Shown here: positions 34,986-63,359 of the stretch, piece after piece
Layout of the letters: each line of letters opens with the position of its first letter
Position numbering within the stretch: position 1 is the first letter of the stretch
Origin: Gammaproteobacteria bacterium
GTDB lineage: Bacteria; Pseudomonadota; Gammaproteobacteria; Eutrophobiales; Eutrophobiaceae
Length of the DNA: 64,000 nucleotides
Direction: 5' to 3'
Assembly: GCA_965229565.1 (NCBI GenBank)
Contig: OZ245888.1
Coordinates: 37,801 to 101,800, forward strand
The notes under the pieces: generated by a model
Seen by the model: only the letters and a program-made list of their open reading frames with translations
The model's database searches: none
Told to the model about the DNA's origin: nothing
Made by a program: the position numbers and the translations under genes

Positions 34986-34987
34986 GA

Positions 34988-35218: not shown

Positions 35219-35251
35219 GATGGCATCCTCGATAAATAAATATTATTAGCG

Positions 35252-35527: not shown

Positions 35528-35602
35528 ATGGCTATTCCTTATTTAACAAATTGTGTCTCGAACATGCATGTTGTTAATCACACACATCCGAGACACTTTT
35601 AT

Positions 35603-35926: not shown

Positions 35927-35966
35927 TACTTTTCTCCTTTTAATTAAAAAGTAAACATGCTTTTTT

Positions 35967-36248
35967 TCACAGAACTTCTTTGTCTTCCTCCTTTAGGTTG
36001 AGATATTGTTCCGGATTATCATCAAATTTATCCAGACAATTTTTTGAACAAAATCGATAAAGCTGACTCTCATATATTTTTCCATAGCCCTTATCAGGTT
36101 CGACATGCATGCCGCAAACAGGATCAGCATGATTTGGTTGACTATGCGAGTGAGTGTGAGAGCCATGAACCATATGAGCACCACAACCAAAACGCATCAT
36201 CAAGTAAAAGAATAATGCGAATAACAAAAATGAACCTAAACCTTCCAT
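35967..36248 (-). CDS. YHS-domain membrane protein with His-rich segment
   Basis: TM helix, HGSHTHSHSQPNH, and a YHS motif (DPVCGMHV...YRFCSKNC). Confidence 0.55.
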   Translation of the reverse strand: MEGLGSFLLFALFFYLMMRFGCGAHMVHGSHTHSHSQPNHADPVCGMHVEPDKGYGKIYESQLYRFCSKNCLDKFDDNPEQYLNLKEEDKEVL

Positions 36249-36306
36249 AACGTTACCCTCATGCTTAACCTGTTTTAAAGCATTAAAAATTCTTCCTCAT
36301 ATAAAT

Positions 36307-38829: not shown

Positions 38830-39036
38830 CTCTCCTTTATTTAAACGTTATTCATTAATATTCTGTCCATGCATATGTTCCATGTCTTTTATCATGGCAC
38901 CAATAATAAAATAAGGATATTCCAGTCCGTCTGAAAGATGATATTTAAAGTCAAAGTATGTCCTGCATAAAATATCAATACGCCTATTAAAAACGCAATA
39001 TTTCCTAGAAAAGCCGCCAATTCGCACCATGTATAA

Positions 39037-39474
39037 CTAAGTAATACTCTCTATCAAATGACATATGGAGTCGCCAACCGGAATAGAATCGTCCATGTTT
39101 TCCCATTGCCGTAATGCTTTTTCCATTCTTTTTTGTAATACCATTGCTTCATTAAATTGATTTTTATTCTTTTCTATCCTTTTCTTAATTATATCCCTCA
39201 CCAATGGGCAAGGGCTTTCGCTTTTTTCACTTGCTATAATAATCTGCTTAATTTCATTAAGCGTATATCCCAATATTTTTGCTTTTCCTATAAATTTCAA
39301 GCGAATCAGATCTGCATGACTGTACATCTGATAATTATTGGTTTTATTTCGTACTGGCTTTAGTAATCTCTTTTTTGTATAAAATCGGACCGCGTCAGTT
39401 GTCACATGGGCTGCATCAGCAAGTTCCTTAACCTGATAAAAACTTATTTTTTTACTATACACTTCTGAATTCAT
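39037..39474 (-). CDS. MerR-family transcriptional regulator
   Basis: N-terminal HTH (VKELADAAHVTTDAVRFYTKKRLLKP) and a coiled-coil dimerisation region. Likely start is MNSEVYS (39474) rather than the ORF-track 39504. Confidence 0.65.
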   Translation of the reverse strand: MNSEVYSKKISFYQVKELADAAHVTTDAVRFYTKKRLLKPVRNKTNNYQMYSHADLIRLKFIGKAKILGYTLNEIKQIIIASEKSESPCPLVRDIIKKRIEKNKNQFNEAMVLQKRMEKALRQWENMDDSIPVGDSICHLIESIT

Positions 39475-39690
39475 TAGCATCGACACCAAAAATGTTTCAT
39501 ACACGTAATTACTCTATTAATTCATCAGTCTAAAACATAGGTCTTAGACACAGGTCAAGCCTGACTTTGATTTTATATAATTCCCATAACTCTGTCTCAA
39601 CCACTACCATATTATTTTTAAATTTTCTCATGTCTATATCTATTCTAATTTTATTATTCATAAATAGTTTGGTTTCTATATATCTAGAAG

Positions 39691-40008
39691 CTATTTATTT
39701 TTTATACTGTCATTATTAATCTTAATCACATCATCAACAGGTGAAATTGATATGAAGCCATCATCATATGTGCCCGCATATGCATTGGTAACAATACAGT
39801 CAGTAATTTTTTTTATGCCTTCTTCTTCTGATACTATTTCTACACGTATATGTGTAATTAGGTCTGGCATTTCAAATAATCTGTGTGGGTTTTCGTAACC
39901 ACTCACACCAACAGTAGTGATATGTGGCACATTCAATTCTTTAAGTTTTGTTTTAATCTGCGCGAGCATTTCGCTGCGGATCACGGCAGTCACTTTTTTT
40001 AGCCTCAT
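39691..40008 (-). CDS. P-II (GlnB)-like small protein adjacent to the RND pump
   Basis: 105 aa with a P-II-like N-terminus (MRLKKVTAVIRSEMLAQIKTKLKELNVPHITTVGVSGYE). Confidence 0.4.
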   Translation of the reverse strand: MRLKKVTAVIRSEMLAQIKTKLKELNVPHITTVGVSGYENPHRLFEMPDLITHIRVEIVSEEEGIKKITDCIVTNAYAGTYDDGFISISPVDDVIKINNDSIKNK

Positions 40009-40058
40009 AATTTCACCTGTTATTTATTTTTTGATAACTTTAAATGAAAATTTACAAG

Positions 40059-43000
40059 TCAAAATTTCAGCGCATAGTTCTTCCATACAAAATAAACAAC
40101 TGGAATTACGATCAATGTTAAAGCTGTCGCACTTATCATCCCTCCGATCATGGGTGCTGCGACACGCGTCATAATTTCAGAGCCTGATCCTTTTATAAAC
40201 ATGATTGGAAGTAAGCCGGCAACGGTCGAACATGTTGTCATCATGATAGGTCTGACACGTTGGCTTGCAGCATCGATAATATTGCTAATCAACTTTTCTC
40301 TACTAATCTTTTTTTCTGGTGAATCAATAGATTTATTTAGAAACTCAAGCATAACAACGCCAGACTCAACTGCGATACCTGCTAATGCGATAAAACCCAC
40401 GCCGACAGCTACAGATAAATTATAATTTAAGAGATATAAAAACCATGCCCCCCCACCAAGCGCAAAAGGCAAAAAGCCCATGATTAAAAATACATCACCT
40501 AATTTTTGAAAGTTAAGATAAAGCAAAATAAATATAATGACTAAGGTAATTGGCACAACGATAGTTAACCGCTCCATTGCCCTTAGCATATATTCATATT
40601 GTCCGGACCAACTTATAGAATAACCTGAAGGTAAATCCACATTTTTTGCAACATGTTCTCGAGCTTCATTCACGTAACTGCCCAAATCACGACCTTTTGT
40701 ATCAACGAATATCCAGCCATTTATTCGCGCATTTTCGCTTTTTATCATTGGTGGGCCATCTGTTATATTTACAGATGCTACATCCTCTAACGGGACTCTC
40801 GCACCAGATGGCGTCACTACGGGCAATAAACGTAATTGTTCCAGTGAGTCACGAAGTTCATGTGGATAGCGGATATTTATTGGATAACGCTCCAGTCCCT
40901 CTACTGTTTCAGCAACATTCATCCCGCCTACTGCAGTACGAACAATGTCCTGAATATCACTGATATTAAGCCCCAATCTAGCGGCATCAATCCTATTAAT
41001 ATCCACAATAAGGTAGCGTCCGCCTGCAACTCGCTCCGCATAAACCGAAGCAGTACCTGGAACATCTTTAAGTGCTTTTTCAATCTGACGGCCGATATCT
41101 TCAATAACTTCAAGATCTGTACCGGCAATTTTTATACCAACAGGAGTCTTTATACCGGTAGCTAACATATCGATACGTGTTTTAATTGGCATTACCCATG
41201 CGTTAGTAATTCCAGGCAATTTTACTAAAGCATTAAACTCTGCTTTTAGTTTTTCAAGTGTCATACCCTCACGCCATTCATTACGAGGTTTAAAACGAAT
41301 AAGTGTTTCAATCATTGTTAGAGGAGCTGGGTCAGTTGCTGTTTCAGCACGGCCAATCTTTCCAAATACGGTATCAACTTCCGGGACAGTACGAATCAAT
41401 TTATCCGTCTGCTGTATAATTTGCTGCGCCTTGCCAATGGAAATAGCAGGCAATGTTGTCGGCATATACATCAAGTCGCCTTCATCCAGATCCGGCATAA
41501 ACTCACTACCTAACTGAGTGAATGGCCAGAGTCCGATAACCATGATCAATAATGCAACAAATACTGTTGAAATAGGGAAATGAAGCACGAATCGTATGAT
41601 TGGCTCATAAAAAATATTTAATAAACGGGTTATAGGATTTTTTTCCGAGGATATGACCCGGCCTTTTACAAAATATCCCAGTAACACAGGCACGACAGTA
41701 ACAGCAAGAATGGTTGCTGATATCATTGCATAAACCCAGGTAAATGCCAGTGGTGAAAACATACGGCCTTCCTGCGCCTGTAGTGTAAAAATAGGTAATA
41801 CACTTAGTCCGGTTATGAGCAAGGAAAAGAACAATGGCGGTCCCACTTCTGTTGTTGCCTTCATAATAACTTTCCAATGATCAGCATCATCATTATTTCG
41901 TTCAATATGTTTATGAACGTTATCAATCATGACGATTGCAGCGTCAACCATGACGCCTATTGCAATAGCAATTCCTCCCAAAGACATAATATTGGCATTG
42001 ATTCCCTGAATATTCATAATGATAAATGCCATTAATATCCCAAGAGGGAGACTAATAATAACAACCAAGGCGGACCGAAAATGTAGAAGAAAAAAGATAC
42101 AAACCAACACCACTAAAAGTAGTTCCTGTAGCAATGCATCTTTTAACGTTTTAATTGCCCGTTCAATTAAGCCGGAACGATCGTAGGTTTCAACAATTTC
42201 GACGCCATCTGGCAATCCTTTTTTCAGCTCGTTTAACTTTTCTTTAACGGAATCGATTACTCTTTTAGCATTTTCACCCCAGCGCATTACGATAACGCCA
42301 CCAACTACTTCTCCCTCACCATTAAGTTCAGCTATACCACGGCGTAACTGTGGGCCGATTCGTACTTGTGCTACGTCTTTGAGTAAAATCGGCGTTCCTC
42401 TGACATTGACACCTAACGGAATATTACGTAATTGTTCAAGACCGGTAATATAACCGGTAACCCTGACCATATATTCAGCTTCTGCCATTTCAATAACAGA
42501 TGCCCCTGCTTCTTGATTGGCTTTTTTAATAGCATTGCTAATTGTTGAAATGGGAATATCGTAGGCACGTAACTGATTAGGATCGACAATTACCTGGTAT
42601 TGTTTGACCATTCCACCAATAGTGGCAACTTCAGCAACACCTGGAACAGTTTGTAATTCATATTTCAGGAACCAGTCTTGCAATGATCGCAATTGTGATA
42701 AGTCATGATTCCCTTTTCGATCAACCAAAGCATATTCATAGACCCAACCTACTCCTGTAGCATCAGGACCAAGTTCAGGCTTAGCACCTGGAGGTAATCT
42801 ACTCGTCACCTGACTTAAGTATTCAAGTACTCTGGATCTTGCCCAATATAAATCCGTTCCTTCTTCAAAAATGACGTAGACATATGAATCACCAAAAAAA
42901 GAATATCCCCTGACAGTAACAGCATAAGGAACAGATAACATTGCAGTGGTTAGTGGGTAGGTAATCTGATCTTCAACAACCTGCGGCGCCTGCCCCGGAA

Positions 43001-43157
43001 AAGGTGTTTTTATTATGACTTGCACATCAGAAAGGTCCGGTATTGCATCTACTGGCGTCTGCTTAATGATATATACGCCACTAATCATGACAACGACAGT
43101 AGCAAGTATAATTAAAAATCGATTATTGATTGACCATTTTATGATCTGCTCTATCAT
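40059..43157 (-). CDS. cusA: Heavy-metal efflux RND transporter, CusA/CzcA family
   Basis: 1032 aa with the 12-TM RND topology and an HME-type N-terminus (PVDAIPDLSDVQVII...). Confidence 0.85.
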   Translation of the reverse strand: MIEQIIKWSINNRFLIILATVVVMISGVYIIKQTPVDAIPDLSDVQVIIKTPFPGQAPQVVEDQITYPLTTAMLSVPYAVTVRGYSFFGDSYVYVIFEEGTDLYWARSRVLEYLSQVTSRLPPGAKPELGPDATGVGWVYEYALVDRKGNHDLSQLRSLQDWFLKYELQTVPGVAEVATIGGMVKQYQVIVDPNQLRAYDIPISTISNAIKKANQEAGASVIEMAEAEYMVRVTGYITGLEQLRNIPLGVNVRGTPILLKDVAQVRIGPQLRRGIAELNGEGEVVGGVIVMRWGENAKRVIDSVKEKLNELKKGLPDGVEIVETYDRSGLIERAIKTLKDALLQELLLVVLVCIFFLLHFRSALVVIISLPLGILMAFIIMNIQGINANIMSLGGIAIAIGVMVDAAIVMIDNVHKHIERNNDDADHWKVIMKATTEVGPPLFFSLLITGLSVLPIFTLQAQEGRMFSPLAFTWVYAMISATILAVTVVPVLLGYFVKGRVISSEKNPITRLLNIFYEPIIRFVLHFPISTVFVALLIMVIGLWPFTQLGSEFMPDLDEGDLMYMPTTLPAISIGKAQQIIQQTDKLIRTVPEVDTVFGKIGRAETATDPAPLTMIETLIRFKPRNEWREGMTLEKLKAEFNALVKLPGITNAWVMPIKTRIDMLATGIKTPVGIKIAGTDLEVIEDIGRQIEKALKDVPGTASVYAERVAGGRYLIVDINRIDAARLGLNISDIQDIVRTAVGGMNVAETVEGLERYPINIRYPHELRDSLEQLRLLPVVTPSGARVPLEDVASVNITDGPPMIKSENARINGWIFVDTKGRDLGSYVNEAREHVAKNVDLPSGYSISWSGQYEYMLRAMERLTIVVPITLVIIFILLYLNFQKLGDVFLIMGFLPFALGGGAWFLYLLNYNLSVAVGVGFIALAGIAVESGVVMLEFLNKSIDSPEKKISREKLISNIIDAASQRVRPIMMTTCSTVAGLLPIMFIKGSGSEIMTRVAAPMIGGMISATALTLIVIPVVYFVWKNYALKF

Positions 43158-43160
43158 GAT

Positions 43161-44468
43161 TTATTCCTCGCCCATATCCATTTGTTCCATTGAGTTATTA
43201 CTCATGGGTTCTTCAACGGATTGCATTCGACTCAGACTGGCTTTGAGATTTGATTCGGAATCAATCAAAAATTGTGAAGAGGTAACAACATTATCTTCTT
43301 TGTTTAATCCCGAAATAATTTCCACCCTATCTCCACTTTCAATACCTGCTACAACTTCCTGCGCATGGAAACGACCATCACCAAGCATTTTAATAACTCG
43401 TTGCTGTTTAGCATCTCGTATCAAGGCTTCACGTGGAATACTTAATGCCTCCTTTTTTTCTCCAGCATAAACAGTAACGTGCGCGTACATATTCGGCATT
43501 AATTTTTCTTCGGAGTTATCAAAACGTAACCGAATGCGTAACGTCCGTGTAACAGGATCAAGATCAGGGTAAATATATTCAACTTCACCTTTCCAGATAA
43601 CACCCGGCATTGAAGGTAATGTAGCTTCTGCACTTTGACCTATTTCAACCCAATTCGCTTGTCGTTCAAATACTTCAGCTAACAACCAAATCGTATCAAG
43701 ATTGGCAATACTTAATATCTGGGTCTCCGGTTTGATATACATTCCTTCACGTACACCAAGATTTATTAACACACCTGATTGTGGCGCATAAAAACGAATA
43801 TTCTGGGTAACTCTTTTTTCTTTTTCCAATCTATCAATCTGAGACTTTGAAATACCCAATGCAGAAAGCTTCTCTTTCGATGCTTCTGCCAGTGATCGAT
43901 TGCCACCCGCTAATGCCTGTAAGTATTCTTCCTGTGCATTTACCAATGGTGGAGAATAAAGCTCAAATATAAGTTGCCCACGTTTAACCTCTTCTCCCTC
44001 AGCACGAACTTGTAGTTTTTCTATCCAACCTTCTGTTCTTGTATGAATATGATTAATTCGTGTTTCGTCGTAATCAATATAACCAACCGTACTTATTCTT
44101 TTCCATAGAGGTCCGAGTTCAACCCTGGTTGACCGTACGCCCAGATTATTGATCACCTCTGGACTTATTTTGACTACAGATGTCTCCTCATCCATGTTCT
44201 CTTCACTGCCTTCATAAACAGGAATAAGGTCCATGCCCATTGGAGACTTTCCAGGTTCATCCCGACGATAGCCTGGATTCATAGGAGCAACCCAATACAT
44301 TATTTTCTTCTCTTTTGATTCAGAGTTTGAATGCCCCGTATGCCCATCCGGATTCATGTCCATATTGAACTTGAACACTAGTTGCGAGGTATCAAATTTC
44401 TTTTCAATGAAAGCGCCAACTAAAATCCCGATGGCAAGCAGAATTAATATCTGAATTATTTTTTTCAT
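43161..44468 (-). CDS. cusB: RND periplasmic adaptor (membrane fusion protein), CusB-like
   Basis: N-terminal anchor with HlyD/biotin-lipoyl-like and beta-barrel domains. Overlaps the cusC stop. Confidence 0.75.
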   Translation of the reverse strand: MKKIIQILILLAIGILVGAFIEKKFDTSQLVFKFNMDMNPDGHTGHSNSESKEKKIMYWVAPMNPGYRRDEPGKSPMGMDLIPVYEGSEENMDEETSVVKISPEVINNLGVRSTRVELGPLWKRISTVGYIDYDETRINHIHTRTEGWIEKLQVRAEGEEVKRGQLIFELYSPPLVNAQEEYLQALAGGNRSLAEASKEKLSALGISKSQIDRLEKEKRVTQNIRFYAPQSGVLINLGVREGMYIKPETQILSIANLDTIWLLAEVFERQANWVEIGQSAEATLPSMPGVIWKGEVEYIYPDLDPVTRTLRIRLRFDNSEEKLMPNMYAHVTVYAGEKKEALSIPREALIRDAKQQRVIKMLGDGRFHAQEVVAGIESGDRVEIISGLNKEDNVVTSSQFLIDSESNLKASLSRMQSVEEPMSNNSMEQMDMGEE

Positions 44469-45730
44469 ATCGTTTCTCTTACGTAATACAATAGATTGGC
44501 TTGTGACTTGGCACGATCAACACGAATCTTCAACATATCTAGTTGTGTATTTAACTCAGTTAATCGAGCACGCATTAATGTTGTAAAGTCAGTTAGATCA
44601 TTTTGATACGCTTTTAACGTGGATGATGAATTTTGCTCGGCATCAACCATTGCTCTTGTTTCATATAATTCAAGTCGTTTACCAAGACGTATCCAATTCG
44701 CATATTCCTTTTCCAACGACTGTCTGAATTCCAGTAAACGATCGCTGCGCGCGAACTGTGAGGCCGCGTGATCCAGCTTGCTCGCAGATAGGCGTTTATC
44801 CTGTCTTTTATTCGTGAAGATAGGCAGATCGACCAGGATCATGGCCGAGGCAAAGTCATCCCTACTACTACCATCCAGATTATTACCTGACCGGTTACCG
44901 TAGGTGAGATCAAGCATCCAACCCGGCTTGTATTGCTGTTCAGCAAGATTAATATCCTTCTCGTTAACCGCAATCATGGCATCTTCAATTTGAATTCTGG
45001 GATGTCGAGGTAATTCCTGGACCAGTTGCTGTAAATCTCTTATCGGCGTTAAGAAGGGAAAGTTGTCGCTTACCCTGTCAAATTGAATACTGTTACCGAG
45101 CCAACGTTTCAACTCGGCCAGTGTCATGGCATGCTTGCCCTGAACCTCTACCAGGCGGTCATCAACCAATGACAGTTCAAGTTGTGCACGCAGCACATCA
45201 TGCTGGTTATCTCGCCCCACTGCATATTGCCTTTCGGTCACTTCCAGTAACTGGCTGAACAAATCACGATTTTCGAGTAATAACTTTTCTGTCTCCTGGC
45301 TAAGGTAAACATCCAGGTAATTGCTGCGTACTGATAACAAGACATTGCGGGCCTGTAACCTTGCTCGTGCGGCATCAATGTCTGCATAATGCCCGGTCTT
45401 TTCCTGCCGCAGTTCTAACGTGTCGCCACGCGGAAAAGACTGCTGTATTCCAACCTGTACCTGCGTCATTGGTTCCTGACTTCGATCGAAACTGTTTATT
45501 GGTAGATTCATCATGCCAAACTTCATAACGGGATCAGGCAATTGGCCTTCAGCAACAGCTAATTCATCATATTTTTCAGCCGTTACTTCAAGCTTCTTGA
45601 TGGTCAAATCAGATGAAAGAGCAAACTCTTCTGCTGCTTGCAACGTCAATTCATTTGCAAATAATTGCGTAGAAACAATGGCAGATAAAATAATCAGAAA
45701 TAATTTATTTAGTATGGATAGGCCCATCAC
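44465..45730 (-). CDS. cusC: Outer-membrane efflux protein (TolC family), CusC-like
   Basis: Signal peptide and two OEP repeats. 421 aa. Confidence 0.75.
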   Translation of the reverse strand: MMGLSILNKLFLIILSAIVSTQLFANELTLQAAEEFALSSDLTIKKLEVTAEKYDELAVAEGQLPDPVMKFGMMNLPINSFDRSQEPMTQVQVGIQQSFPRGDTLELRQEKTGHYADIDAARARLQARNVLLSVRSNYLDVYLSQETEKLLLENRDLFSQLLEVTERQYAVGRDNQHDVLRAQLELSLVDDRLVEVQGKHAMTLAELKRWLGNSIQFDRVSDNFPFLTPIRDLQQLVQELPRHPRIQIEDAMIAVNEKDINLAEQQYKPGWMLDLTYGNRSGNNLDGSSRDDFASAMILVDLPIFTNKRQDKRLSASKLDHAASQFARSDRLLEFRQSLEKEYANWIRLGKRLELYETRAMVDAEQNSSSTLKAYQNDLTDFTTLMRARLTELNTQLDMLKIRVDRAKSQANLLYYVRETI

Positions 45731-46332: not shown

Positions 46333-46761
46333 TTAATGCTGGACATGACTGGCATCCGCCAGTGTATCTACGGTGCTCCAGATCAGCTTGCTTTTGTAGG
46401 TCACCATGCTGGGGGCAGATGAAATATGAAACAGGTGGTTAATCATCAAATCATGAATATCCTTGAATTCATGGTCCATGATCAGGCGCATACCCCAACC
46501 TGTGAATTTTCTTTGCTCGATATCATGCCGGATATAGTGTGTGATTCGATGACGGTTATCCCGGTAAATGGAATCAAACAGTTGTTGTAAATCCGTCTCT
46601 TCACTCTCGATGTACTGGATAAAGCGGTCTTCGCTATCGTAGGAAAGGTAACCGGTAATATTGTTATTTTTGTTCCTGGCTGCGGCAGTTTGTGCCAATT
46701 GTGTCAATTCATCTTCTGAAAAAGGATTTGTTGCCCTACTTATATAAACCAGACCTTTCAT
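46333..46761 (-). CDS. BLUF-domain blue-light FAD photoreceptor (short, stand-alone)
   Basis: LVYISRA...ITGYLSYDSEDRFIQYIESEE...LFDSIYRDNRH matches the BLUF signature Y-x-S...ITG-L-Y...F-Q-x-E...D-x-RH. Confidence 0.7.
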   Translation of the reverse strand: MKGLVYISRATNPFSEDELTQLAQTAAARNKNNNITGYLSYDSEDRFIQYIESEETDLQQLFDSIYRDNRHRITHYIRHDIEQRKFTGWGMRLIMDHEFKDIHDLMINHLFHISSAPSMVTYKSKLIWSTVDTLADASHVQH

Positions 46762-46828: not shown

Positions 46829-47695
46829 TTAAATATTAATGGCGAGAACCTGACTCAGGTCAATGCAGTTGGAAGCGTGAGGAATAGTGTTACAGGTAAC
46901 GACCCTGGCTGCACCTGCCTGTTTAATCTGCTGCCATGCAGCATCGGCAAATACAGCGTGGATTCCAATGCATACCGGGGCTGAAAGCCCTGCCGCAAGT
47001 AAATGCTTAATGGTTTCTATCATAGTTTTACCGGTAGAAATAATATCATCAAATAATACTGGCGTGCAGTCTGTCCATTTTTCAACCTGCGGCACAATCA
47101 CTTCCACATCCCGGTCGCCTCGCCTTGTCTTTTCCAAAACTAAAAATGGTGCGCCACTGTTTTTTGCCAACTTTTTAACCCACTGTGCGCTTTCACTGTC
47201 GGGGCCTATAATGACCGGCGAACTAACGTTAGCTTTTAACCAATTACTGACGGCAGGTGCAGCCCTGACCAGTTTTGTTTCAATAGAATATATATCAGCC
47301 AGATCGTGGATTCGGTGCAAATGAGGATCTACAGTAACCAATTTATCAAAACAGGATGATAAGAGTCTGGCATAGTAACGGGCCGTAACACCTTGCCCAC
47401 TTTTGAAAATCTTATCCTGCCGCATGTAGGCAAGATAAGGCGCAACGAGTGTGATGTGCTGCACTCCATAGTCACGTAGTGTATGTGCAAGAAAAAAAAG
47501 AGGCAGCGTGATATTATCAGGTTGCACCAGGCTAGCGTAAACAACACAAGAATCGGCAATCAGCTCTGGTTCGATTTGAATACAACTCTCGCCATCCGGG
47601 AAACGATGACATTCAACGATACTGCAGGCCGTTCCCAGTTCTGTAGCCAGTGCCTGGGCAGGTTCTTGCTGCTGTGCAAATGCAAAGACAGTCAT
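46829..47695 (-). CDS. Ribose-phosphate pyrophosphokinase (PRPP synthetase)-like PRTase-fold protein
   Basis: PRPP-binding loop VLFDDIISTGKTM with the two-domain Prs-like organisation. 288 aa, with a divergent N-terminus. Confidence 0.6.
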   Translation of the reverse strand: MTVFAFAQQQEPAQALATELGTACSIVECHRFPDGESCIQIEPELIADSCVVYASLVQPDNITLPLFFLAHTLRDYGVQHITLVAPYLAYMRQDKIFKSGQGVTARYYARLLSSCFDKLVTVDPHLHRIHDLADIYSIETKLVRAAPAVSNWLKANVSSPVIIGPDSESAQWVKKLAKNSGAPFLVLEKTRRGDRDVEVIVPQVEKWTDCTPVLFDDIISTGKTMIETIKHLLAAGLSAPVCIGIHAVFADAAWQQIKQAGAARVVTCNTIPHASNCIDLSQVLAINI

Positions 47696-47707
47696 TGATA
47701 TAACAAT

Positions 47708-49219
47708 TCAGTTCGGGTTGATAACAATGATATCTTCCTGCGCGTTGATATAGTCGAGGGCATAGGCCAGTTCCCCTGCGGATTCGGCATGGAGTGTAAA
47801 TAGCGGCTGGTTGTTGTCCACTGATTGTCCCTGTCTTATATGAAGATCGATCCCGGCCGCTGCGGCCAATGGCGCACCCGCGAGCTTGGCACAGAGTGCC
47901 AGCCGCCTGTTGTCGATACTTTGTACAGTTCCCGCCTGGCGGGCCAGATGTTCATGCTGGAATCTTGCAAGTTTCAAAGTGCGCATACCGCCCTGTGCCT
48001 CGCAGATAGCCTGGAATTTATTCCAGGCTGTACCGTTGTTTAGTATGTTCTCGGCGATCACAAAACCTTCATCGCTGGCTACTTTGCCCGAAAATTCCAG
48101 GATTTCACCAGCTAGCACCAATGCCTTTTCCCGAAGGTCTTGTGGCGCATCCGGATCGTTTTGCAAAACCTGTAGCACATCCCTTGCCTCCAGCGCTGGT
48201 CCAATTCCACGACCAACAGGTTGCTCACCCACAGTGAGCTTGACGCGGACATTCATATCAATTTCGGAGCCTATATCGACCAGCGTATCCGCTAGTTGTC
48301 TGGCCAGGTTCATGGAACGGACCTTTGCTGTCTCCCCCACGGGAACATCAATCAGTACATGCGTGGAACCTGCCGCAGATTTTTTAGAAAGCACCGATGC
48401 GATCAACTGCCCCTCACTATCTATATCAAGCTGTCTTTCGACCGATATCAAAATGTCATCTGCGGGACTGATTTGCATGGCGCCGCCCCAGACGATGCAG
48501 CCATTTTCCTGGTATACAACACGTTGCATCTGTTCAATAGTGAGATTGACCGGTGCCAGCGTCTCCATGGTATCTGCCGTGCCAGCCGGCGAAGTGATGG
48601 CACGTGATGAGGTTTTAGGCATAATCAGTCCAAAGGCAGCAATGATAGGTACCAGGATGATAGTCGTGCGATTACCAGGTAGCCCACCAACACAATGTTT
48701 ATCCACCACGATATCACTGTCCCAGTAAAGGCGGGTACCGGCATTAATCATGGCGCGGGTAAGCGACACAATTTCATCCATGTTCAGTCGGTTACCTGCA
48801 CACGCCGTAATGAATGCAGACAGGTGAATATCATCAAAATTTCTGGCGACAATATCCTGAATGATGGCATCAAATTGCCATTGTTCCAGTGCGCGACCAT
48901 GGATCTTGGCACGCACATAGGAGAGTGACTGCATCGGTTCGGGATGAGATAGAAAAGCAATGTCATCTTCCTGTGCATGTAATATTTCCCAGGCCGCATC
49001 GGACAAACCTAACTCCCCCGAACGCAGGATAGAGTCCCGGATTATATGTAAGGTCGCGATTATCGATCGTTCCCTGATGCGCACATTGATCCGTGAAAAC
49101 GCTTCAAAGCCCTCGATTCGACAAATTGGGCAATCGTGACGCATATAGATGACTGCCTGTCGGTAGGTATCAATACCGATACGTTTTACCCGCATGGTAT
49201 TTTTATTCTTGTTATCCAT
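47708..49219 (-). CDS. Thymidine-phosphorylase-family protein, long form (putative thymidine/AMP phosphorylase-like)
   Basis: Glycosyltransferase family 3 (nucleoside phosphorylase II) core preceded by a ~90 aa N-terminal extension. 503 aa. Confidence 0.65.
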   Translation of the reverse strand: MDNKNKNTMRVKRIGIDTYRQAVIYMRHDCPICRIEGFEAFSRINVRIRERSIIATLHIIRDSILRSGELGLSDAAWEILHAQEDDIAFLSHPEPMQSLSYVRAKIHGRALEQWQFDAIIQDIVARNFDDIHLSAFITACAGNRLNMDEIVSLTRAMINAGTRLYWDSDIVVDKHCVGGLPGNRTTIILVPIIAAFGLIMPKTSSRAITSPAGTADTMETLAPVNLTIEQMQRVVYQENGCIVWGGAMQISPADDILISVERQLDIDSEGQLIASVLSKKSAAGSTHVLIDVPVGETAKVRSMNLARQLADTLVDIGSEIDMNVRVKLTVGEQPVGRGIGPALEARDVLQVLQNDPDAPQDLREKALVLAGEILEFSGKVASDEGFVIAENILNNGTAWNKFQAICEAQGGMRTLKLARFQHEHLARQAGTVQSIDNRRLALCAKLAGAPLAAAAGIDLHIRQGQSVDNNQPLFTLHAESAGELAYALDYINAQEDIIVINPN

Positions 49220-49248
49220 ATCTGGGCAAAATTACGGCTTCCAGGTTT

Positions 49249-50619
49249 CTACTTAATTACCACAGACTGTCCATGCACCGGGATTTCTACATTCCATCCC
49301 AGTTGATTAACCAGATAGCTACGAAATGCATCCTGGCTCTGTGGCTCACCATGAACAATATAAGTCATCCGAGGCCGCCCAGGCATGGTTGCCAACCAGT
49401 CGGTCAACTCCTGGTAATCGGCATGTGCTGACAGGCAATCTATTGATGTCAGTTTCGCCCGTACCGGGTAATACTCCCCGTGGATCTTGATTCGGTCCAT
49501 GCCTGCCAGCATGTTTGCACCACGAGTTCCTTCTGCCTGATAGCCTACAAAGATTATCGTGTTGCGATTATCACCAAGGTATACTTTCAAATGATGTAGA
49601 ACCCGGCCACCAGTCAACATCCCGCTCGCGGACAGGATTATCTTCGGTACTGACTGAAACTCGATTCCCTTCGACTCCTCGACAGCAGGTGTAAAAGTCA
49701 CCAGTTGGCCAAGTTTATGACACTCATCTTCACTGAGTTTGTGTAAATCCTTGTGGCGGAAAAAGATATCGGTTGCATCAATCGCCATTGGGCTATCGAG
49801 GTATATCGGTACCCTGGGTATCCTTTTTTCAATAATCAATTTTGTGATCACGTGTAACAGACTTTGTGCTCGACCCACAGCAAAGGTGGGTATCAACACG
49901 GCTCCACCCTTGCCAAACGTGCTATTAATAACTTTTTCCAGCAATTCAAATGGATCGGCTTCAGGGTGTCTGCGATTTCCATAGGTTGATTCGATCACCA
50001 GGAAATCTGCATTGGGTAATGACTCCGGCGCATGCATCACTACATCATCAGGTCGTCCTACATCACCGCTGAACAGGATACTCTTTTCACCATCATGCAC
50101 ATGGACACAGGCAGCACCAAGTATATGGCCGGCATTAGTCATTGATACCTTGATACCTGGCACTGGTTCGAAGGACTGGTGATAGGCAACTGGAAAAAAT
50201 TGTTCCAGTGAACGATAGGCATCCATTTCGGTGTAGATTGGCAGGGCTGGATGGTGTTTCGTATAGCCGTATCGGTTGGCGCGATCCGCTTCTTCCTCTT
50301 GCAAATGTCCTGCATCCGGTAACAGGATTCTGCAGAGATCCATCGTCGCATGCGTGCAGTAAATTTTACCTTTGAAGCCTTCTCTGCAAAGAGCCGGTAT
50401 AAAACCACTGTGGTCAAGGTGAGCATGGGTTAACACAATGGCATCGATAGTGCCTGGCTCAACAGGAAATGGTTGTCTGTTCCTGATCCGAATCTTTTTT
50501 ATCCCCTGGAAAAGTCCACAATCAATGAGTATCCGTTTGTCGTCTTTTTCCAGCAGAAACCTTGAACCGGTAACTGTTTCGGCCGCACCCCAGAATGTCA
50601 GCTTACAGCCCACAGGCAC
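49249..50619 (-). CDS. MBL-fold metallo-hydrolase of the beta-CASP family
   Basis: HxHxDH motif (LTHAHLDHSG) followed by downstream beta-CASP motifs. 456 aa. Confidence 0.7.
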   Translation of the reverse strand: MPVGCKLTFWGAAETVTGSRFLLEKDDKRILIDCGLFQGIKKIRIRNRQPFPVEPGTIDAIVLTHAHLDHSGFIPALCREGFKGKIYCTHATMDLCRILLPDAGHLQEEEADRANRYGYTKHHPALPIYTEMDAYRSLEQFFPVAYHQSFEPVPGIKVSMTNAGHILGAACVHVHDGEKSILFSGDVGRPDDVVMHAPESLPNADFLVIESTYGNRRHPEADPFELLEKVINSTFGKGGAVLIPTFAVGRAQSLLHVITKLIIEKRIPRVPIYLDSPMAIDATDIFFRHKDLHKLSEDECHKLGQLVTFTPAVEESKGIEFQSVPKIILSASGMLTGGRVLHHLKVYLGDNRNTIIFVGYQAEGTRGANMLAGMDRIKIHGEYYPVRAKLTSIDCLSAHADYQELTDWLATMPGRPRMTYIVHGEPQSQDAFRSYLVNQLGWNVEIPVHGQSVVIK

Positions 50620-51910: not shown

Positions 51911-52129
51911 TCAGGCGCAATCCTCTTTTTCTTCCTCTTTTTCCAGGTGCTCGGCAAGCTGTTCCAACACGAGTTTGGCCGAATACTGGAGATCGACCAG
52001 GCGAACCTGTGTCAATTTGCTCAATTCATTAGCGAGCCTGACATCCTGTACATCAGACATCAGTAACTCAATCTTATGCATGAGCTCAGCGAGCTGCTGA
52101 TCGCTATCAAATTTATTTTTTGCGTCCAT
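51911..52129 (-). CDS. Small acidic coiled-coil hypothetical protein
   Basis: 72 aa, predicted helical, no recognisable motif. Confidence 0.3.
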   Translation of the reverse strand: MDAKNKFDSDQQLAELMHKIELLMSDVQDVRLANELSKLTQVRLVDLQYSAKLVLEQLAEHLEKEEEKEDCA

Positions 52130-52491: not shown

Positions 52492-53748
52492 TCAGGAGAA
52501 AGTCATTGTTCTCTCGGTGGGTAGTTCATCGATATCCCCTGCCATGATGCGGTTACGAACATAAACACTGATTCGGTAGCGTTCCATATCCTGAAGGTCA
52601 TGAAAACTTACACCGATAGAGATATCGTCCTGATCCTCGTTGAGGTCTTTCCATAACACTGTCGCATTCGTGGTGACCTTGAGGTAATCATCCTCGGAAT
52701 CAGATGGAATATAAAATTCCAGGAAAAGTTTACTCCCCAGTTCGATGTCAGAGGTAACACGCAGGTTGGCACCGCTGACGGAAAGATTCACTTTCTCTGC
52801 AAAGATAAAACCCTCATCAGGCTGACATTGAATTCTTACCTTGAGTGTCACAGCGGCACGATGATCCCAGCGCAATTCTTTATCCATATCTTCTATGTTG
52901 CAATCGATACCCATTGCTTTTTCCAGGGCCAGTGCAAACTCACGACAGGAATGGAAACGTTTACGCGAATTCTTTTCCAGTGCCTTCAGTACCACCTTGT
53001 CAACTTTCTCGGGAATATCCTTGACCAAGCTTGATGGTTTATTAACCGGTGTTTCCTGATGACTTTTGAGCATCTCGCTGACAGTGCTGGCTTTTGTAAA
53101 AGGATGTCTGCCGGTCAACATCTTGTAGAGGATGATCCCAAGCGAATAAATATCTGCACGGGCATCCATGTGCTGGCAATTGATATGTTCCGGTGACATG
53201 TAACCCGGTGTACCGTTGGGTTTACCTTCAAGGAAAGACTGTTCTTCAAGAAATTTGGCAATACCAAAATCCATAATCAACACTTCACCACTGAGACTGA
53301 TGCGGATATTGCCGGGCTTCAAGTCGAGATGAACAATACCAAGGTTGTGTGCATATTCCATTGCCCACAGTATCTTTTGCATGATCTTTAGCGCCTGGCT
53401 TACCTTGAATGGTTTTTTTTGATTGGCAAGTATCTGATCCAGGTCGCCACCGCTGATCAGGCGCATAACGATCAGTACCGATTTCTTATAATCCAGGATG
53501 TCGTACACGGGGACAATATTGGAGTGTTCTGCCAGCGCGTGTATGCGGGCCTCGCGGATGATGGATTCCTTGTTGAATTTCCTGTTCACCAGGTCAGTTG
53601 AACGGACCTTGATCGCGACATATCGCTGTAGCTCATGGTCATAGGCCTTGTACACGTCTCCGAAGGTGCCACTGCCAATGACGTCCTTAAGCTCGTACCG
53701 GCCTATCCTTGTTCCCTCTAGCGTCACTGGTTTGGTCTTCGCGAACAT
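52492..53748 (-). CDS. Hanks-type Ser/Thr protein kinase fused to a C-terminal PilZ (c-di-GMP-binding) domain
   Basis: - Kinase motifs: GSGTFGDVYKA, VAIK, HLDLKPGNI, DFGIAK, SPE.
- C-terminal ~130 aa carries RWDHR (RxxxR) and, 27 residues later, NLSVSG ((D/N)xSxxG). Confidence 0.6.
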   Translation of the reverse strand: MFAKTKPVTLEGTRIGRYELKDVIGSGTFGDVYKAYDHELQRYVAIKVRSTDLVNRKFNKESIIREARIHALAEHSNIVPVYDILDYKKSVLIVMRLISGGDLDQILANQKKPFKVSQALKIMQKILWAMEYAHNLGIVHLDLKPGNIRISLSGEVLIMDFGIAKFLEEQSFLEGKPNGTPGYMSPEHINCQHMDARADIYSLGIILYKMLTGRHPFTKASTVSEMLKSHQETPVNKPSSLVKDIPEKVDKVVLKALEKNSRKRFHSCREFALALEKAMGIDCNIEDMDKELRWDHRAAVTLKVRIQCQPDEGFIFAEKVNLSVSGANLRVTSDIELGSKLFLEFYIPSDSEDDYLKVTTNATVLWKDLNEDQDDISIGVSFHDLQDMERYRISVYVRNRIMAGDIDELPTERTMTFS

Positions 53749-53931
53749 GTCGATAAATTAAATTCTAGTATAAAAAGCCCTGTCCAGGCATCTCACCGTT
53801 CTGGACATACAGATACCTGACTGCAGCCATCACCTCTATATCGGACGATACAGATTGTTCTTGAGAAATGATTGTTAGATCGTGTATTCGAGAATTAGTC
53901 GAACTGCGCTTTCATCCTGCTGAAAACAATC

Positions 53932-53956
53932 CATAAAAAAACCTGCACATGGCAGG
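53932..53956. terminator. Hairpin plus A/T runs (AAAAAAAA-CCTGC-ACATG-GCAGG-TTTATTTAT)
   Basis: Follows the 3' end of repeat A on the minus strand, and the kinase gene on the plus side. Confidence 0.45.
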
Positions 53957-54067
53957 TTTATTTATATGGCGCGCCCGGAAGGACTGACTCGCGACGTCCT
54001 GTCGCTCGCACTGCGTACAGACTAGCGTCTGCCCAAATCGTCTATCCTGACGATTTGTCGAACCGAC
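53957..54067. repeat. tRNA-Arg-3'-end-derived structured repeat, copy A (degenerate tRNA-like unit)
   Basis: Begins TGGCGCGCCCGGAAGGA, identical to the reverse complement of the adjacent tRNA-Arg 3' end. The rest is ~80% identical to copy B (19503-19602), with compensatory changes in three hairpins. There is no 5' acceptor strand. Confidence 0.55.
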
Positions 54068-54145
54068 TTGTTTATTGTCGGAGGGTCAAATTCATGCAAC
54101 TCCATAAATAAAAAAACCCGCACAAGGCAGGTCTGTTTATTTATA

Positions 54146-54222
54146 TGGCGCGCCCGGAAGGATTCGAACCTCCGACCCCCTAGTTCGTAGCCAGGTACTC
54201 TATCCAACTGAGCTACGGGCGC
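54146..54222 (-). tRNA. tRNA-Arg, anticodon ACG
   Basis: Reverse complement GCGCCCGTAGCTCAGTTGGATAGAGTACCTGGCTACGAACTAGGGGGTCGGAGGTTCGAATCCTTCCGGGCGCGCCA, with anticodon loop CTACGAA and a T-run terminator downstream. Confidence 0.85.
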
Positions 54223-54272
54223 GTTGCAAAATTTGAGCGGCGAATAATATCTGACTTGCGTATTTAGTCAAA

Positions 54273-54378
54273 TGGCGGAGAGAGAGGGACTACAAAATAC
54301 ATCCTGTATTTTGCCCTGCGGGCCAGCCTGCGGCTGTTCCGATTTGTTCCCGACAAATCGGTCAAACCCTCTTCTCGG
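54273..54378. repeat. tRNA-Ser-3'-end-derived structured repeat, copy C
   Basis: Begins TGGCGGAGAGAGAGGGA, which is the reverse complement of the tRNA-Ser 3' end. Followed by hairpins GCCCTGCGGGC, CAGCCTGCGGCTG and CCGATTTGT-TCCCG-ACAAATCGG. The tail CCCTCTTCTC can pair with the head. Confidence 0.5.
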
Positions 54379-54442
54379 CTATCGCATCTACCTTTCGTGA
54401 ATCATTCAAATATTCATATCATTAATATGAATATTTGAATGA

Positions 54443-54534
54443 TGGCGGAGAGAGAGGGATTCGAACCCTCGATACGGGATAAACCGTATACTCCCTTAGC
54501 AGGGGAGCGCCTTCAGCCACTCGGCCACCTCTCC
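54443..54534 (-). tRNA. tRNA-Ser, anticodon GCT
   Basis: Reverse complement GGAGAGGTGGCCGAGTGGCTGAAGGCGCTCCCCTGCTAAGGGAG...GGTTCGAATCCCTCTCTCTCCGCCA, with a long variable arm and anticodon loop CTGCTAA. Confidence 0.85.
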
Positions 54535-59578: not shown

Positions 59579-60643
59579 TCAGGCTACTACCTCTTCATCC
59601 GGGGCGTCCTCGGCCACGTCTTCTTCAGTGACCGGTAACACGGTGGGGAGTAATTGTGCGCGAATCTTTGCCTGTAGTTGATCCGCGATTTCCGGGTTTT
59701 CTTTCAGGTAGGTTCGTACATTGTCCTTGCCCTGGCCGATGCGCTCATCGCCGTAGCTGTACCAGGCACCGGCCTTGTCGATCAGCCCCAACTGCACGCC
59801 GAGATCGATGATCTCACCATGACGGGAGATGCCCTCACCGTAAAGAATATCAAACTCGGCCTGCTTGAACGGGGGTGCTATCTTGTTCTTGACGACCTTG
59901 ACGCGGGTCTCGTTGCCTACTACTTCATCACCCTTCTTGATGGCACCGATACGGCGAATGTCGAGTCGCACACTGGAATAAAACTTCAGTGCATTACCAC
60001 CGGTTGTCGTTTCCGGGTTACCAAACATAACACCGATCTTCATACGGATCTGGTTAATAAAGATGACGCAGCAATTGGCGCGCTTGATGTTACCGGTCAG
60101 TTTACGTAGTGCCTGTGACATCAGGCGTGCAGCCAGACCCATGTGCGAGTCACCCATTTCACCTTCAATTTCTGCCTTGGGTACCAGTGCCGCTACCGAG
60201 TCGATGACGACCAGTTCTACCGCGCCACTGCGAACCAGCATGTCGCAGATTTCCAGTGCCTGTTCGCCCGTGTCCGGTTGCGATACCAGCAGTTCATCAA
60301 TATCCACGCCCAGCTTTTCAGCATAGATAGGGTCCAGTGCATGCTCGGCATCGATAAAGGCGCAGGTTTTACCCTGTTTCTGTGCCTCGGCGATGGCCGA
60401 CAGGGTCAGCGTGGTTTTACCAGAGGATTCCGGACCGTATATTTCAACGATACGACCATACGGTAAACCGCCTGCGCCCAGCGCAATATCCAGTCCCAGG
60501 GAACCGGTACTGACAGTCGGAATTGCCGCAACCGGCTGGTCTCCCATTTTCATGACCGAGCCCTTGCCGAACTGTTTTTCGATCTGGCCCAGTGCCATAC
60601 TCAGTGCACGTTTCTTGTCGTCATCTACCTTTGCTGTTGCCAT
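59579..60643 (-). CDS. recA: Recombinase RecA
   Basis: GPESSGKTT Walker A, L1/L2 loops, canonical length (354 aa). Confidence 0.95.
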
Positions 60644-60677
60644 CGTAATATCTCCTTATCCAGTTTATCGATGCCTG

Positions 60678-60697
60678 TCGTTCCCCCTCGAACGACC
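60678..60697. promoter_or_regulatory. Perfect 7-bp inverted repeat GTCGTTC-N6-GAACGAC in the recA upstream region; candidate operator
   Basis: Located 35-55 nt upstream of the recA start, in the divergent intergenic region shared with the WYL regulator gene. I found no CTGT-N8-ACAG LexA box by inspection of 60644-60812. Confidence 0.35.
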
Positions 60698-60812
60698 AGT
60701 TGCCGATAGAATAGGCAATACTTTTTTTGATGTCAATATTTTTTATTACCTTTATATTTTTTACTATGTAATAAATTCTATCGAGGTATTTTCATTTCGG
60801 TATACTTTGACC

Positions 60813-61682
60813 ATGTTGAATGAAATCAAGTGGGCCACCCGCCAGCGGCTGCAGTTTATAGAAGTAATGGCTTACTACACAGGTGTGGTCACACGCAGCG
60901 ACGTGGCACGGGCCTTTGCCATTTCCGACGCGGCCGCGACAAAGGACCTCAAGTACTACGGGGATATTGCCCCTGGCAACCTGAACTACAAGCACAGCGT
61001 GTTCGGTTTCGTTCCTACGGCCGATTTCAGCGCCGTATTCGCCGATCTGTCGCCCACCACCGTATTACCCATGCTGGAAGCCAACCTGACCGTGGTTGGC
61101 AGTCCTGACCCGGATGAACCGGTATTTGGCGTTGCCTCGGAAAACCTGGTGTTGCCCAACCGTTTGCCCGGCCAGGAGGTACTGAGCCAGATTACACGGG
61201 CCATCCATGGTAGCAACAGGCTAAAAGTCAGCTATCACTCACTATCTGAAAATTCAAATATTGAAAGGATTATTGAGCCACATGCCCTGGTGAACACCGG
61301 TTTTCGCTGGCACGTACGTGCCTACAACGAGGACAGTTTTGATTTCCGGGATTTCGTTCTGTCACGTTTCGTGGAGGCCACCTGTCTCGAGGAAGCGGCC
61401 GAATCCAGTGCCCGCTACGACGAGGACTGGATAGAATTCGTGGTATTGAAGCTTGGCCCCCACCCAGCTCTGAGCCAGAAACAGAAGGCTAGCCTGCTGA
61501 TCGACTACAAGGCAGAAAAAGAGATCATTGAAATACGCATTCGCCGGGCACTGATCGGCTACCTGTTACGACAGTTAAGCGTCGATACCAGTGCAGACCA
61601 TTCGCGTGACCCGATACAGTATCAACTGGTGGTATTGAACCGCGACGAGATCGAGCCGTTTGCGAGTTGGGCGTTTAACTAA
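60813..61682 (+). CDS. HTH-WYL domain transcriptional regulator (PafBC/DriD-like architecture), divergent from recA
   Basis: The ORF-track 5' extension overlaps recA and is rejected. ATG at 60813 gives MLNEIKW... N-terminal wHTH (RQRLQFIEVMAYYTGVVTRSDVARAFAIS), central WYL-like segment (IIEPHALVNTGFRWHVRAYNEDSFDFRDFVLSRF), and a C-terminal extension. Confidence 0.6.
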   Translation: MLNEIKWATRQRLQFIEVMAYYTGVVTRSDVARAFAISDAAATKDLKYYGDIAPGNLNYKHSVFGFVPTADFSAVFADLSPTTVLPMLEANLTVVGSPDPDEPVFGVASENLVLPNRLPGQEVLSQITRAIHGSNRLKVSYHSLSENSNIERIIEPHALVNTGFRWHVRAYNEDSFDFRDFVLSRFVEATCLEEAAESSARYDEDWIEFVVLKLGPHPALSQKQKASLLIDYKAEKEIIEIRIRRALIGYLLRQLSVDTSADHSRDPIQYQLVVLNRDEIEPFASWAFN

Positions 61683-62192: not shown

Positions 62193-63359
62193 TCAGGAAG
62201 AAATGGTAACCATGACCAGCGTCTGGTCATCCTGTTCATTGGAATTACTGACGTGCTGATGATAAGTATCCATGAAGTTTGACATTAACAACTCTGCCGA
62301 GCCGGCCGGGCTTTGTTCCAGTACCGATTTCAAACGATCAAAACCAAACTGTTCACCGGAGATCGATTCGGCCTCGGTAATACCATCGGTATATAAAACA
62401 ATGGTATCGCCCTGCTCGAGCTGCGTGGTTTCCGTAGTCCAGCTATAGTCGCGTTCTATGCCAATCGGTATGCCGGTTTTACTTTGCAGTACGCTGACGT
62501 GGCCTTCATGGTGCTTGATCAATATTGGCAGATGACCGGCAGAGGCGTAGGAAAAAATATCTGTCGATGCATCATAGTTACAAAGAATACCGGTACTGAA
62601 GCCACCGCGATATTCGCGCGTGAAATAATACTTGTTGACGTATTTCAGCACATCGCCGGGGCCGGAGCCGGCCTGGTACTCGTACGTACGCAGGATGGCA
62701 TCGACCATGGCGACCTCTACTGCGGCACCTGGACCATGGCCCGAGACATCCATCAGCCCGACTCCCCAGATCAATGGCGGATTTTCAACCCCGGCGCGTT
62801 TACGAGATGGACGCAGGTCAATCACATCGAAGTAATCGCCGCCGCCGCCAACACTGGGACGGTAATAGGTTGCATAGTCCAGGCCCTCGATACGATGACC
62901 TTCAGATGGCAACAGCTTTTCCTTGATGGTTTTTACTTCACGGATATAGTCCTGGTATTTCTTTTCTTTCCTGTCATTTATTTTTACCAGTCGATCATTT
63001 TCAACCAGTGCATCAACCAGGTTTAATAATAGTTGCGGCTCATAACTATCCATCACTTTTTTACCGGGTGCGGCAGCAAGCAGGTAGTGAGCCCTGGGTT
63101 GTAGTTGCAAGGGAGACAAGATCACGTCATCACAGTCAGTAAATAGTCCCTGCAATACTTCAGGTAAATTTTCAATGGCAAGATACAGGCTGTGGTTATT
63201 ATTAGTTGGTACTTCGAATGGTGCATCGAGCTGTATGTCTTTCTCGTTTCCAAGTACATGCTGCACACCGTCGACTGTGGTCAATTCATACACAGTCATG
63301 CCGGGTAATGCCTGCAGGACCCGCTGCATAAGTGAGGAATAGGCAGAGCCCGTTTTCAT
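62193..63359 (-). CDS. PP2C-family (SpoIIE/RsbU-like) Ser/Thr phosphatase with N-terminal sensory region
   Basis: GLMDVSGHGPGAAVEVAM, LYTDGITEA and DDQTLVMV metal-binding motifs. Confidence 0.65.
   Translation of the reverse strand: MKTGSAYSSLMQRVLQALPGMTVYELTTVDGVQHVLGNEKDIQLDAPFEVPTNNNHSLYLAIENLPEVLQGLFTDCDDVILSPLQLQPRAHYLLAAAPGKKVMDSYEPQLLLNLVDALVENDRLVKINDRKEKKYQDYIREVKTIKEKLLPSEGHRIEGLDYATYYRPSVGGGGDYFDVIDLRPSRKRAGVENPPLIWGVGLMDVSGHGPGAAVEVAMVDAILRTYEYQAGSGPGDVLKYVNKYYFTREYRGGFSTGILCNYDASTDIFSYASAGHLPILIKHHEGHVSVLQSKTGIPIGIERDYSWTTETTQLEQGDTIVLYTDGITEAESISGEQFGFDRLKSVLEQSPAGSAELLMSNFMDTYHQHVSNSNEQDDQTLVMVTISS

Follow-up and report, generated by a model that had tools for sequence, protein, structure and literature searches.

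Two of the principal signalling systems of bacteria are based on c-di-GMP and on Hanks-type phosphorylation of Ser/Thr, respectively, and the question raised by this locus is whether the former directly controls the latter within a single protein. The gene belongs to a marine gammaproteobacterial MAG and lies in the 64-kb window that constitutes the whole stretch of DNA analyzed here. It is a complete CDS from the ORF list, located on the minus strand (52492..53748), which starts with ATG and encodes 418 aa followed by a stop codon. The product is 100% identical to the NCBI entry 'MAG: serine/threonine-protein kinase [Gammaproteobacteria bacterium]' (P0001), found on contigs of up to 2.7 Mb. 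The maximum Kyte-Doolittle value over a 19-residue window is 1.23 and there is no transmembrane segment; thus, the protein is predicted to be soluble and cytoplasmic.

The initial annotation described this product as a complete eukaryotic-like kinase domain followed by a C-terminal PilZ domain with the motifs RWDHR and NLSVSG, and both parts of the description hold. Residues 18-266 (52951..53697, minus strand) match the Pfam kinase family PF00069 with E=3.9e-57 and a score of 194.1 bits against a cut-off of 31.7. The full set of kinase motifs is present, namely GSGTFG (residues 25-30), VAIK with K47, E66, HLDLKPGN (140-147), DFG (160-162), SPE (185-187), and R264. The signature residues, including H140, D142, K144, and N147, are invariant in our alignment set of 30 homologues with 37-87% identity, and the kinase half is predicted to be catalytically competent. 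In the AlphaFold2 model of the full-length protein, built on the alignment of 30 homologues (pLDDT 79.7, pTM 0.80), the domain adopts the bilobal kinase fold with pLDDT values mostly of 80-97, and the pTM of the model hints at a defined packing of the domains against each other.

The closest solved folds found by Foldseek are those of PknB, PknA, and PknE from Mycobacterium tuberculosis and Stk1/PknB from Staphylococcus aureus (TM-score normalised to the target 0.84-0.89, identity 30-34%). The catalytic fold and motifs are shared with the PknB/Stk1 PASTA kinases. The NCBIfam model PknB_PASTA_kin (NF033483) covers only the kinase part, residues 16-282, and yields 265 bits, which is below its equivalog cut-off of 450. 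Assignment to the PASTA kinases PknB/Stk1 was rejected on this score and on the lack of both a transmembrane helix and PASTA repeats in the protein.

Unlike PknB/Stk1, the protein has a non-RD catalytic loop and no conserved TxT phosphosites in the activation loop. In the catalytic loop HLDLKPGN (residues 140-147; 53308..53331, minus strand), leucine replaces the arginine of the HRD motif. Among the 30 homologues, this position 141 is occupied by Leu (24), Gln (4), or Lys (2); in the wider set of 35 fusion proteins, where the identity of the PilZ domains falls to about 25%, it is Leu, Gln, Lys, or Ala and in no case Arg. The activation segment of the homologues, from DFG to SPE, contains no conserved Ser or Thr besides the structural threonine of the GT pair. 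Non-RD kinases are a known active subclass that is generally independent of activation-loop phosphorylation. Since the kinase is non-RD and conserved loop phosphosites are missing, no regulatory input other than the PilZ domain is evident. Neither the non-RD state nor the bare activation loop had been mentioned in the initial annotation.

The region C-terminal of the kinase spans approximately 139 aa and in the AlphaFold2 model is composed of a linker, a beta-barrel (residues 298-382), an alpha-helix (387-403), and a disordered tail. The PilZ domain proper, defined by Pfam, AlphaFold2, and Foldseek, covers residues 293-403 (52540..52872, minus strand), including the barrel and the helix. The Pfam model PF07238 matches residues 293-392 with E=8.9e-9 and 36.1 bits, above the gathering cut-off of 22.5. 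The domain thus passes the profile threshold on which the initial annotation had let its PilZ assignment depend. The match is modest in score, and in the orthologue P0009 the Pfam label is 'weak'.

Both c-di-GMP-binding motifs were confirmed by motif search and conservation, with 23 residues between them, a gap within the range of about 20-30 residues seen in canonical PilZ domains. The first one, RWDHR of the RxxxR type, occupies residues 293-297 (52858..52872, minus strand); R293, W294, and R297 do not vary, and 28 of the 30 homologues retain D295. The second one, NLSVSG of the D/NxSxxG type, occupies residues 321-326 (52771..52788, minus strand); S323 and G326 are invariant, and position 321 is Asn in 26 homologues, Asp in two, and Ser in two. 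These five residues (R293, W294, R297, S323, and G326) account for five of the eight positions C-terminal of the kinase domain that are invariant in the 30 homologues. In the C-terminal helix of PilZ, the arginines R390 and R398 are strictly or almost strictly conserved. All six-frame ORFs of 100 aa or more in the 64-kb window were scanned for the pattern RxxxR-(18-32)-[DN]xSxxG, which proved unique to the kinase ORF.

Searched against the PDB as a single sequence, the PilZ part produced no significant match, and profile and fold searches were needed. An AlphaFold2 model of residues 279-418 alone (pLDDT 80) consists of six strands and a helix (model positions 109-125), and its top 48 Foldseek matches in the PDB are all PilZ structures. 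These include MotI/DgrA (5vx6, E=1e-6), Alg44, BcsA, PP4397, YcgR, VCA0042 (with the L135R structure 3kyg), PlzA, MrkH, MapZ, and PA0012; many of the 48 were solved with c-di-GMP, and their identity to the domain is only 9-19%. A profile of 18 kinase-linked PilZ segments retrieved MotI/YpfA of Bacillus subtilis with E=1.8e-9, in agreement with the fold. In the family profile alignment, RWDHR (RWDpR) falls on RNSHR in the PilZ domain of cellulose synthase (4i86), and NLSVSG (NLSvsG) on NISAGG in MotI and on DLSMGG in the PilZ domain of cellulose synthase. Based on the profile, motifs, and modelled fold, the C-terminal domain is assigned to PilZ domains of the canonical c-di-GMP-binding type, and binding of the ligand is predicted.

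The same architecture is found elsewhere. Our survey yielded 30 further clusters of proteins of 411-458 aa in which Pfam recognizes both Pkinase and PilZ, and automatic Pfam annotation tags all homologues in this way. The hosts are uncultured marine Gammaproteobacteria and their relatives. All 35 fusion proteins carry RW[DN]xR and [DNS]xSxxG separated by 22-23 residues, and in distant members the PilZ domain scores 41-54 bits with Pfam. An exhaustive single-sequence phmmer search with the PilZ part against 1.84 billion representative sequences gave only 23 matches; all six full- or partial-length matches with a Pfam-confirmed PilZ domain also contain Pkinase. Hence, this PilZ lineage appears to have evolved mainly within the kinase. 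The PilZ family profile, compared with 5.8 billion proteins, recovered 19 stand-alone PilZ proteins, all assigned to PF07238, and no fusions, which confirms membership of the PilZ family; the PilZ part alone, used as the query of a word-indexed search, gave no scorable candidates. A scan of genome contigs with generic kinase motifs confirmed at least one locus (L009, from an uncultured gammaproteobacterial MAG).

The segment that joins the two domains is nearly constant in length. The junction (residues 280-292; 52873..52911, minus strand) is predicted to be flexible by its AlphaFold2 pLDDT, which is below 50 over residues 283-296, and it is here that the RxxxR segment is situated. In ligand-free PilZ structures this segment is expected to be disordered, as it is in the model. 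In 31 of the 35 fusion proteins, exactly 25 residues separate the invariant cysteine of kinase subdomain XI from the RW motif. A junction that kept its length while the PilZ domains drifted apart to about 25% identity suggests that the two domains are physically coupled and that the junction is under structural constraint. Three distant members (P0030, P0031, and P0130) have inserts or linkers of 60-77 residues, which would suit a rigid clamp less well. As judged from the alignments, the family is set apart by three features: the intact motifs with an invariant RW, a kinase that is always non-RD and lacks a conserved phosphosite in the activation loop, and the fixed junction.

The initial annotation considered the coupling of c-di-GMP to a bacterial Ser/Thr kinase to be undescribed. 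For the architecture this does not hold, as the combination of a Ser/Thr kinase and PilZ is already known from Pkn1 (MXAN_1467) of Myxococcus xanthus, the first bacterial Hanks kinase (PMC8316039; 10.1101/814665; PMC8844925), and Galperin and Chou cite Pkn1 among PilZ fusion proteins (bioRxiv 10.1101/814665). For the response to the ligand the statement stands: in the literature on PilZ or c-di-GMP combined with Hanks or Ser/Thr kinases, we found no Hanks kinase regulated by c-di-GMP. Conserved binding motifs are missing from the PilZ domain of Pkn1, the only fusion of this sort that has been studied, which 'is predicted not to bind c-di-GMP' (PMC8316039; PMC8844925); this speaks against ligand control in the present family. 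Recent reviews list control of kinases by c-di-GMP only for the histidine kinases CckA, ShkA, and RavS (PMC12189002; PMC12564702). Given the motif-less PilZ of Pkn1 and the restriction of the reviews to histidine kinases, a c-di-GMP-responsive Hanks kinase appears not to have been demonstrated so far.

The comparison with Pkn1 defines the gammaproteobacterial family more closely. In both, the Hanks kinase is N-terminal and is followed by a PilZ domain for which a C-terminal helix is predicted, and both are cytoplasmic; the host of Pkn1 is a myxobacterium, and that of the protein described here is a marine gammaproteobacterium. Unlike the PilZ domain of Pkn1, in which the motifs are degenerate, the PilZ domain of this family keeps both of them invariant and adds an invariant tryptophan (RWDxR). 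The fixed short junction and the non-RD catalytic loop are further differences. The family may thus be regarded, on its sequence features, as a variant of an established architecture, with intact motifs, a non-RD kinase, and a junction of fixed length.

Comparison with other c-di-GMP-dependent systems points to common elements as well. MotI/DgrA, Alg44, BcsA, YcgR, PP4397, VCA0042/PlzD, and MapZ have the same beta-barrel and C-terminal helix, as well as RxxxR and D/NxSxxG at the same spacing. As in VCA0042 and PP4397, another domain precedes the linker that bears RxxxR; ligand binding re-orients the two domains in both these proteins. The difference lies in the output, which here is a Hanks kinase, whereas in canonical PilZ receptors it is a glycosyltransferase, a flagellar brake, a methyltransferase partner, or the YcgR-N domain. 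The likeness to CckA, ShkA, and RavS is in concept only, that is, c-di-GMP directly switching a protein kinase, which is predicted here and experimentally demonstrated there. These three proteins belong to the histidine kinase superfamily with HATPase_c, unlike the Hanks kinase, and bind c-di-GMP at the PAS/CA interface or at a pseudo-receiver rather than by a PilZ domain.

A natural explanation of these observations, which we favour with moderate confidence, is that the protein is a two-domain signalling device, in which a predicted c-di-GMP receptor is tethered to a non-RD kinase and acts as an allosteric switch. We infer that c-di-GMP controls phosphorylation directly, as the initial annotation had suggested. 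The arginines of RWDHR, which are located in the flexible junction immediately past the last helix of the kinase, and the barrel strand with NLSVSG would hold the ligand between them. The bound c-di-GMP is probably a monomer, since the residue before the first arginine is Leu, as in VCA0042; it is Leu in 20 of the 30 homologues. Ko et al. (2010) reportedly associated the leucine before RxxxR in VCA0042 with monomeric c-di-GMP. Binding would order the junction, and the PilZ barrel together with the arginine-rich C-terminal helix would re-dock on the C-lobe of the kinase, which may change either the catalytic output or the access of substrates. As for the direction of this presumed allosteric effect, we lean weakly towards the view that the ligand relieves autoinhibition and so activates the kinase, as it does in BcsA and ShkA. 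If such gating by c-di-GMP is real, it would represent a novel mode of regulation for bacterial kinases of the non-RD class.

The genomic context contains few clues to partners. The kinase gene comes after the conserved recA-recX-alaS-lysC-csrA-tRNA-Ser-tRNA-Arg block and is isolated from the tRNA/csrA transcription unit by a hairpin terminator (53939..53959, minus strand), which is located upstream of the kinase gene after a 3'-end fragment of tRNA-Arg. Because of this hairpin and approximately 360 nt of non-coding DNA downstream, the gene appears to be monocistronic. A promoter-like site GTGAGA-18-TATACT (53767..53796, minus strand) is situated about 20 nt upstream of the ATG as a consensus match only; the promoter call is weak, as promoter-like sites in the region are no commoner than in shuffled sequence. 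In the window and at 12 related loci, we detected neither a PP2C phosphatase gene nor one for an FHA protein, nor a GGDEF/EAL gene next to the kinase gene, and the neighbourhoods at these 12 loci have no partner gene in common. One of the loci (L004) has a GGDEF gene 3.5 kb from the kinase-PilZ orthologue, a point in favour of c-di-GMP sensing. The neighbourhood of an 86%-identical orthologue shares only a downstream ORF for a 72-aa coiled-coil protein (70% identity), a hydrolase gene, and a nearby BLUF gene. Near the kinase gene, Rfam elements are represented only by tRNAs, with no c-di-GMP riboswitch. A genomic island at tRNA-Arg was considered and rejected, as the duplicated tRNA 3' ends are about 175-180 nt apart, both are upstream, and they do not bracket the gene.

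In another scenario, the PilZ domain does not sense c-di-GMP and works independently of ligand as an adaptor or interaction module, providing for substrate docking, oligomerisation, or localisation of the kinase. To this we assign a low yet appreciable probability. Such a role has been suggested for Pkn1, PlpA, and the type II PilZ domains, among them the PilZ protein of type IV pili. Pkn1 is functional in development in spite of its motif-less PilZ domain (PMC8316039; PMC8844925), and PlpA, which has the motifs, is reported not to bind the ligand (PMC8316039). The C-terminal helix of PilZ domains, with R390 and R398 conserved here, is described as a protein-interaction surface (10.1101/814665), and a motif search of the 64-kb window recognized no GGDEF, EAL, or HD-GYP ORF and hence no gene of c-di-GMP metabolism. 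However, non-binding PilZ domains typically lose RxxxR and D/NxSxxG, whereas in this family the motifs are invariant in 35 proteins with PilZ identity down to about 25%, which is hard to explain unless ligand binding is under selection. Should the protein fail to bind, these kinases would provide a further example of PilZ as a ligand-independent adaptor.

A reading of low probability accepts the predicted binding, to which the same evidence applies equally, and places the output elsewhere: c-di-GMP would recruit the kinase to a partner or to the cell pole, or would dimerise it through intercalated ligand, and the substrates would change. Precedents are MapZ and YcgR, which act through ligand-dependent partner binding (5xly and 5y6f are among the fold matches). 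The long, flexible linkers of P0030, P0031, and P0130 fit a tethered module, and these same proteins have arginine before RxxxR (RRWDPR), a residue that, again according to Ko et al. in 2010, is said to favour dimeric c-di-GMP. The constant 25-residue junction in 31 of the 35 members and the lack of a conserved neighbouring partner gene favour the intramolecular mechanism instead. Far less credible, and in our opinion very improbable, is a role in anti-phage defence, in which the gene alone would constitute a kinase system like PD-T4-6 or Stk2 and PilZ would serve as the sensor. The PADLOC models of PD-T4-6 do match with E=1e-77, and the gene is an orphan beside tRNA genes with duplicated 3' ends in a neighbourhood that varies among homologues. 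However, the matches extend only over the generic kinase portion (residues 14-280), and the model for housekeeping PknB does just as well, with the 265 bits given above. The PD-T4-6 models also flag the core PASTA kinase of every Streptococcus thermophilus genome (PMC11514479) and are therefore non-specific. Moreover, no defence genes flank the kinase gene in the window or at loci L001-L012, and its neighbours are housekeeping genes (csrA, lysC, alaS, and recA). The PADLOC assignment was set aside as unlikely because its models are non-specific.

Returning to the allosteric switch, we consider it possible, though short of probable, that these proteins are the first Hanks-type kinase family gated directly by c-di-GMP, in which the non-RD loop and the family-specific RWDxR, positioned exactly 25 residues past the kinase core, would together form the switch, and which would link Ser/Thr phosphorylation to the level of c-di-GMP in uncultured marine Gammaproteobacteria and some other lineages. 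With its compact soluble chain of 418 aa, invariant motifs, and rigid spacing, the protein offers a tractable test of c-di-GMP-driven Ser/Thr phosphorylation. The same proposal includes the TxTF tail as a possible autophosphorylation or pseudosubstrate element. The tail, DELPTERTMTFS, covers residues 407-418 (52495..52530, minus strand) and is disordered in the AlphaFold2 model (pLDDT <50). It is missing from the distant members P0028-P0031 and conserved elsewhere: of 26 sequences that bear it, T414 is retained in 25 and T416 in 21, and as a speculation the segment may be viewed as a candidate phospho-acceptor or pseudosubstrate.

The kinase ends in a disordered C-terminal tail (residues 407-418, window positions 52495-52530) with the consensus DELP(S/T)ERTxTF. 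Within the family of kinase-PilZ fusions, this motif is kept in the gammaproteobacterial core, where T414 is conserved in 25 of 26 proteins and T416 in 21 of 26; more distant members of the family do not have it. The tail could be a target of autophosphorylation, dock an FHA domain, or act as a pseudosubstrate.

A protein of 388 aa (62193-63359, minus strand), flanked by cinA and a LigT-like gene, combines an unassigned N-terminal half of ~190 aa with a C-terminal SpoIIE/PP2C-type phosphatase domain. Located 8.5 kb from the kinase, its gene is the sole Ser/Thr phosphatase-like gene in the scanned part of the window (~40-64 kb). The minus-strand gene at 46333-46761 encodes a short, stand-alone blue-light sensor of the BLUF type, 142 aa long. 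In other bacteria, short BLUF proteins are often regulators of c-di-GMP phosphodiesterases. In the related locus L010, which carries a kinase orthologue with 86% identity, a BLUF gene (10666-11091) is also situated near the kinase.

The same locus retains the ORF located 360 nt downstream of the kinase (51911-52129, minus strand), which encodes a coiled-coil protein of 72 aa with no match in Pfam. In L010 the ORF (8351-8572) is conserved at 70% identity, and so is its upstream region; beside more distant homologues of the kinase the ORF is missing.

Upstream of the kinase are two tRNA genes, and an exact duplicate of each one's 3' end lies ~170-180 nt further downstream. The tRNA-Arg(ACG) repeat (53956-53983 and 54135-54162) spans 28 nt, made up of the final 17 nt of the tRNA and 11 further nt, and a near-identical hairpin terminator follows each copy. 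The tRNA-Ser(GCT) repeat measures 18 nt (54272-54289 and 54442-54459). These repeats may have arisen as tandem copies of the tRNAs that have decayed, or as att-like scars left by small insertions; neither pair brackets the kinase gene.

Horizontal acquisition may explain the low-GC stretch at 34000-44000, with a GC content of 35-41%, compared to 45-53% elsewhere. Part of a CusCBA-like RND operon for heavy-metal efflux (40059-45730, minus strand) falls within this stretch; the operon consists of an AcrB-family pump, an HlyD/CusB protein that carries an HMBD domain, and an outer-membrane factor.

Three minus-strand genes at 46829-50619 form what looks like an unusual grouping for nucleotide metabolism: they encode an RNase-like protein of the beta-CASP metallo-beta-lactamase type, a 503-aa thymidine-phosphorylase-like protein, and a 288-aa protein similar to PRPP synthetase. 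Finally, an ORF of 429 aa on the plus strand (60393-61682) has a WYL domain match (E=7e-14). This ORF shares ~250 nt with the 5' portion of recA, which lies on the minus strand (59579-60643), and its real start is probably located further downstream.
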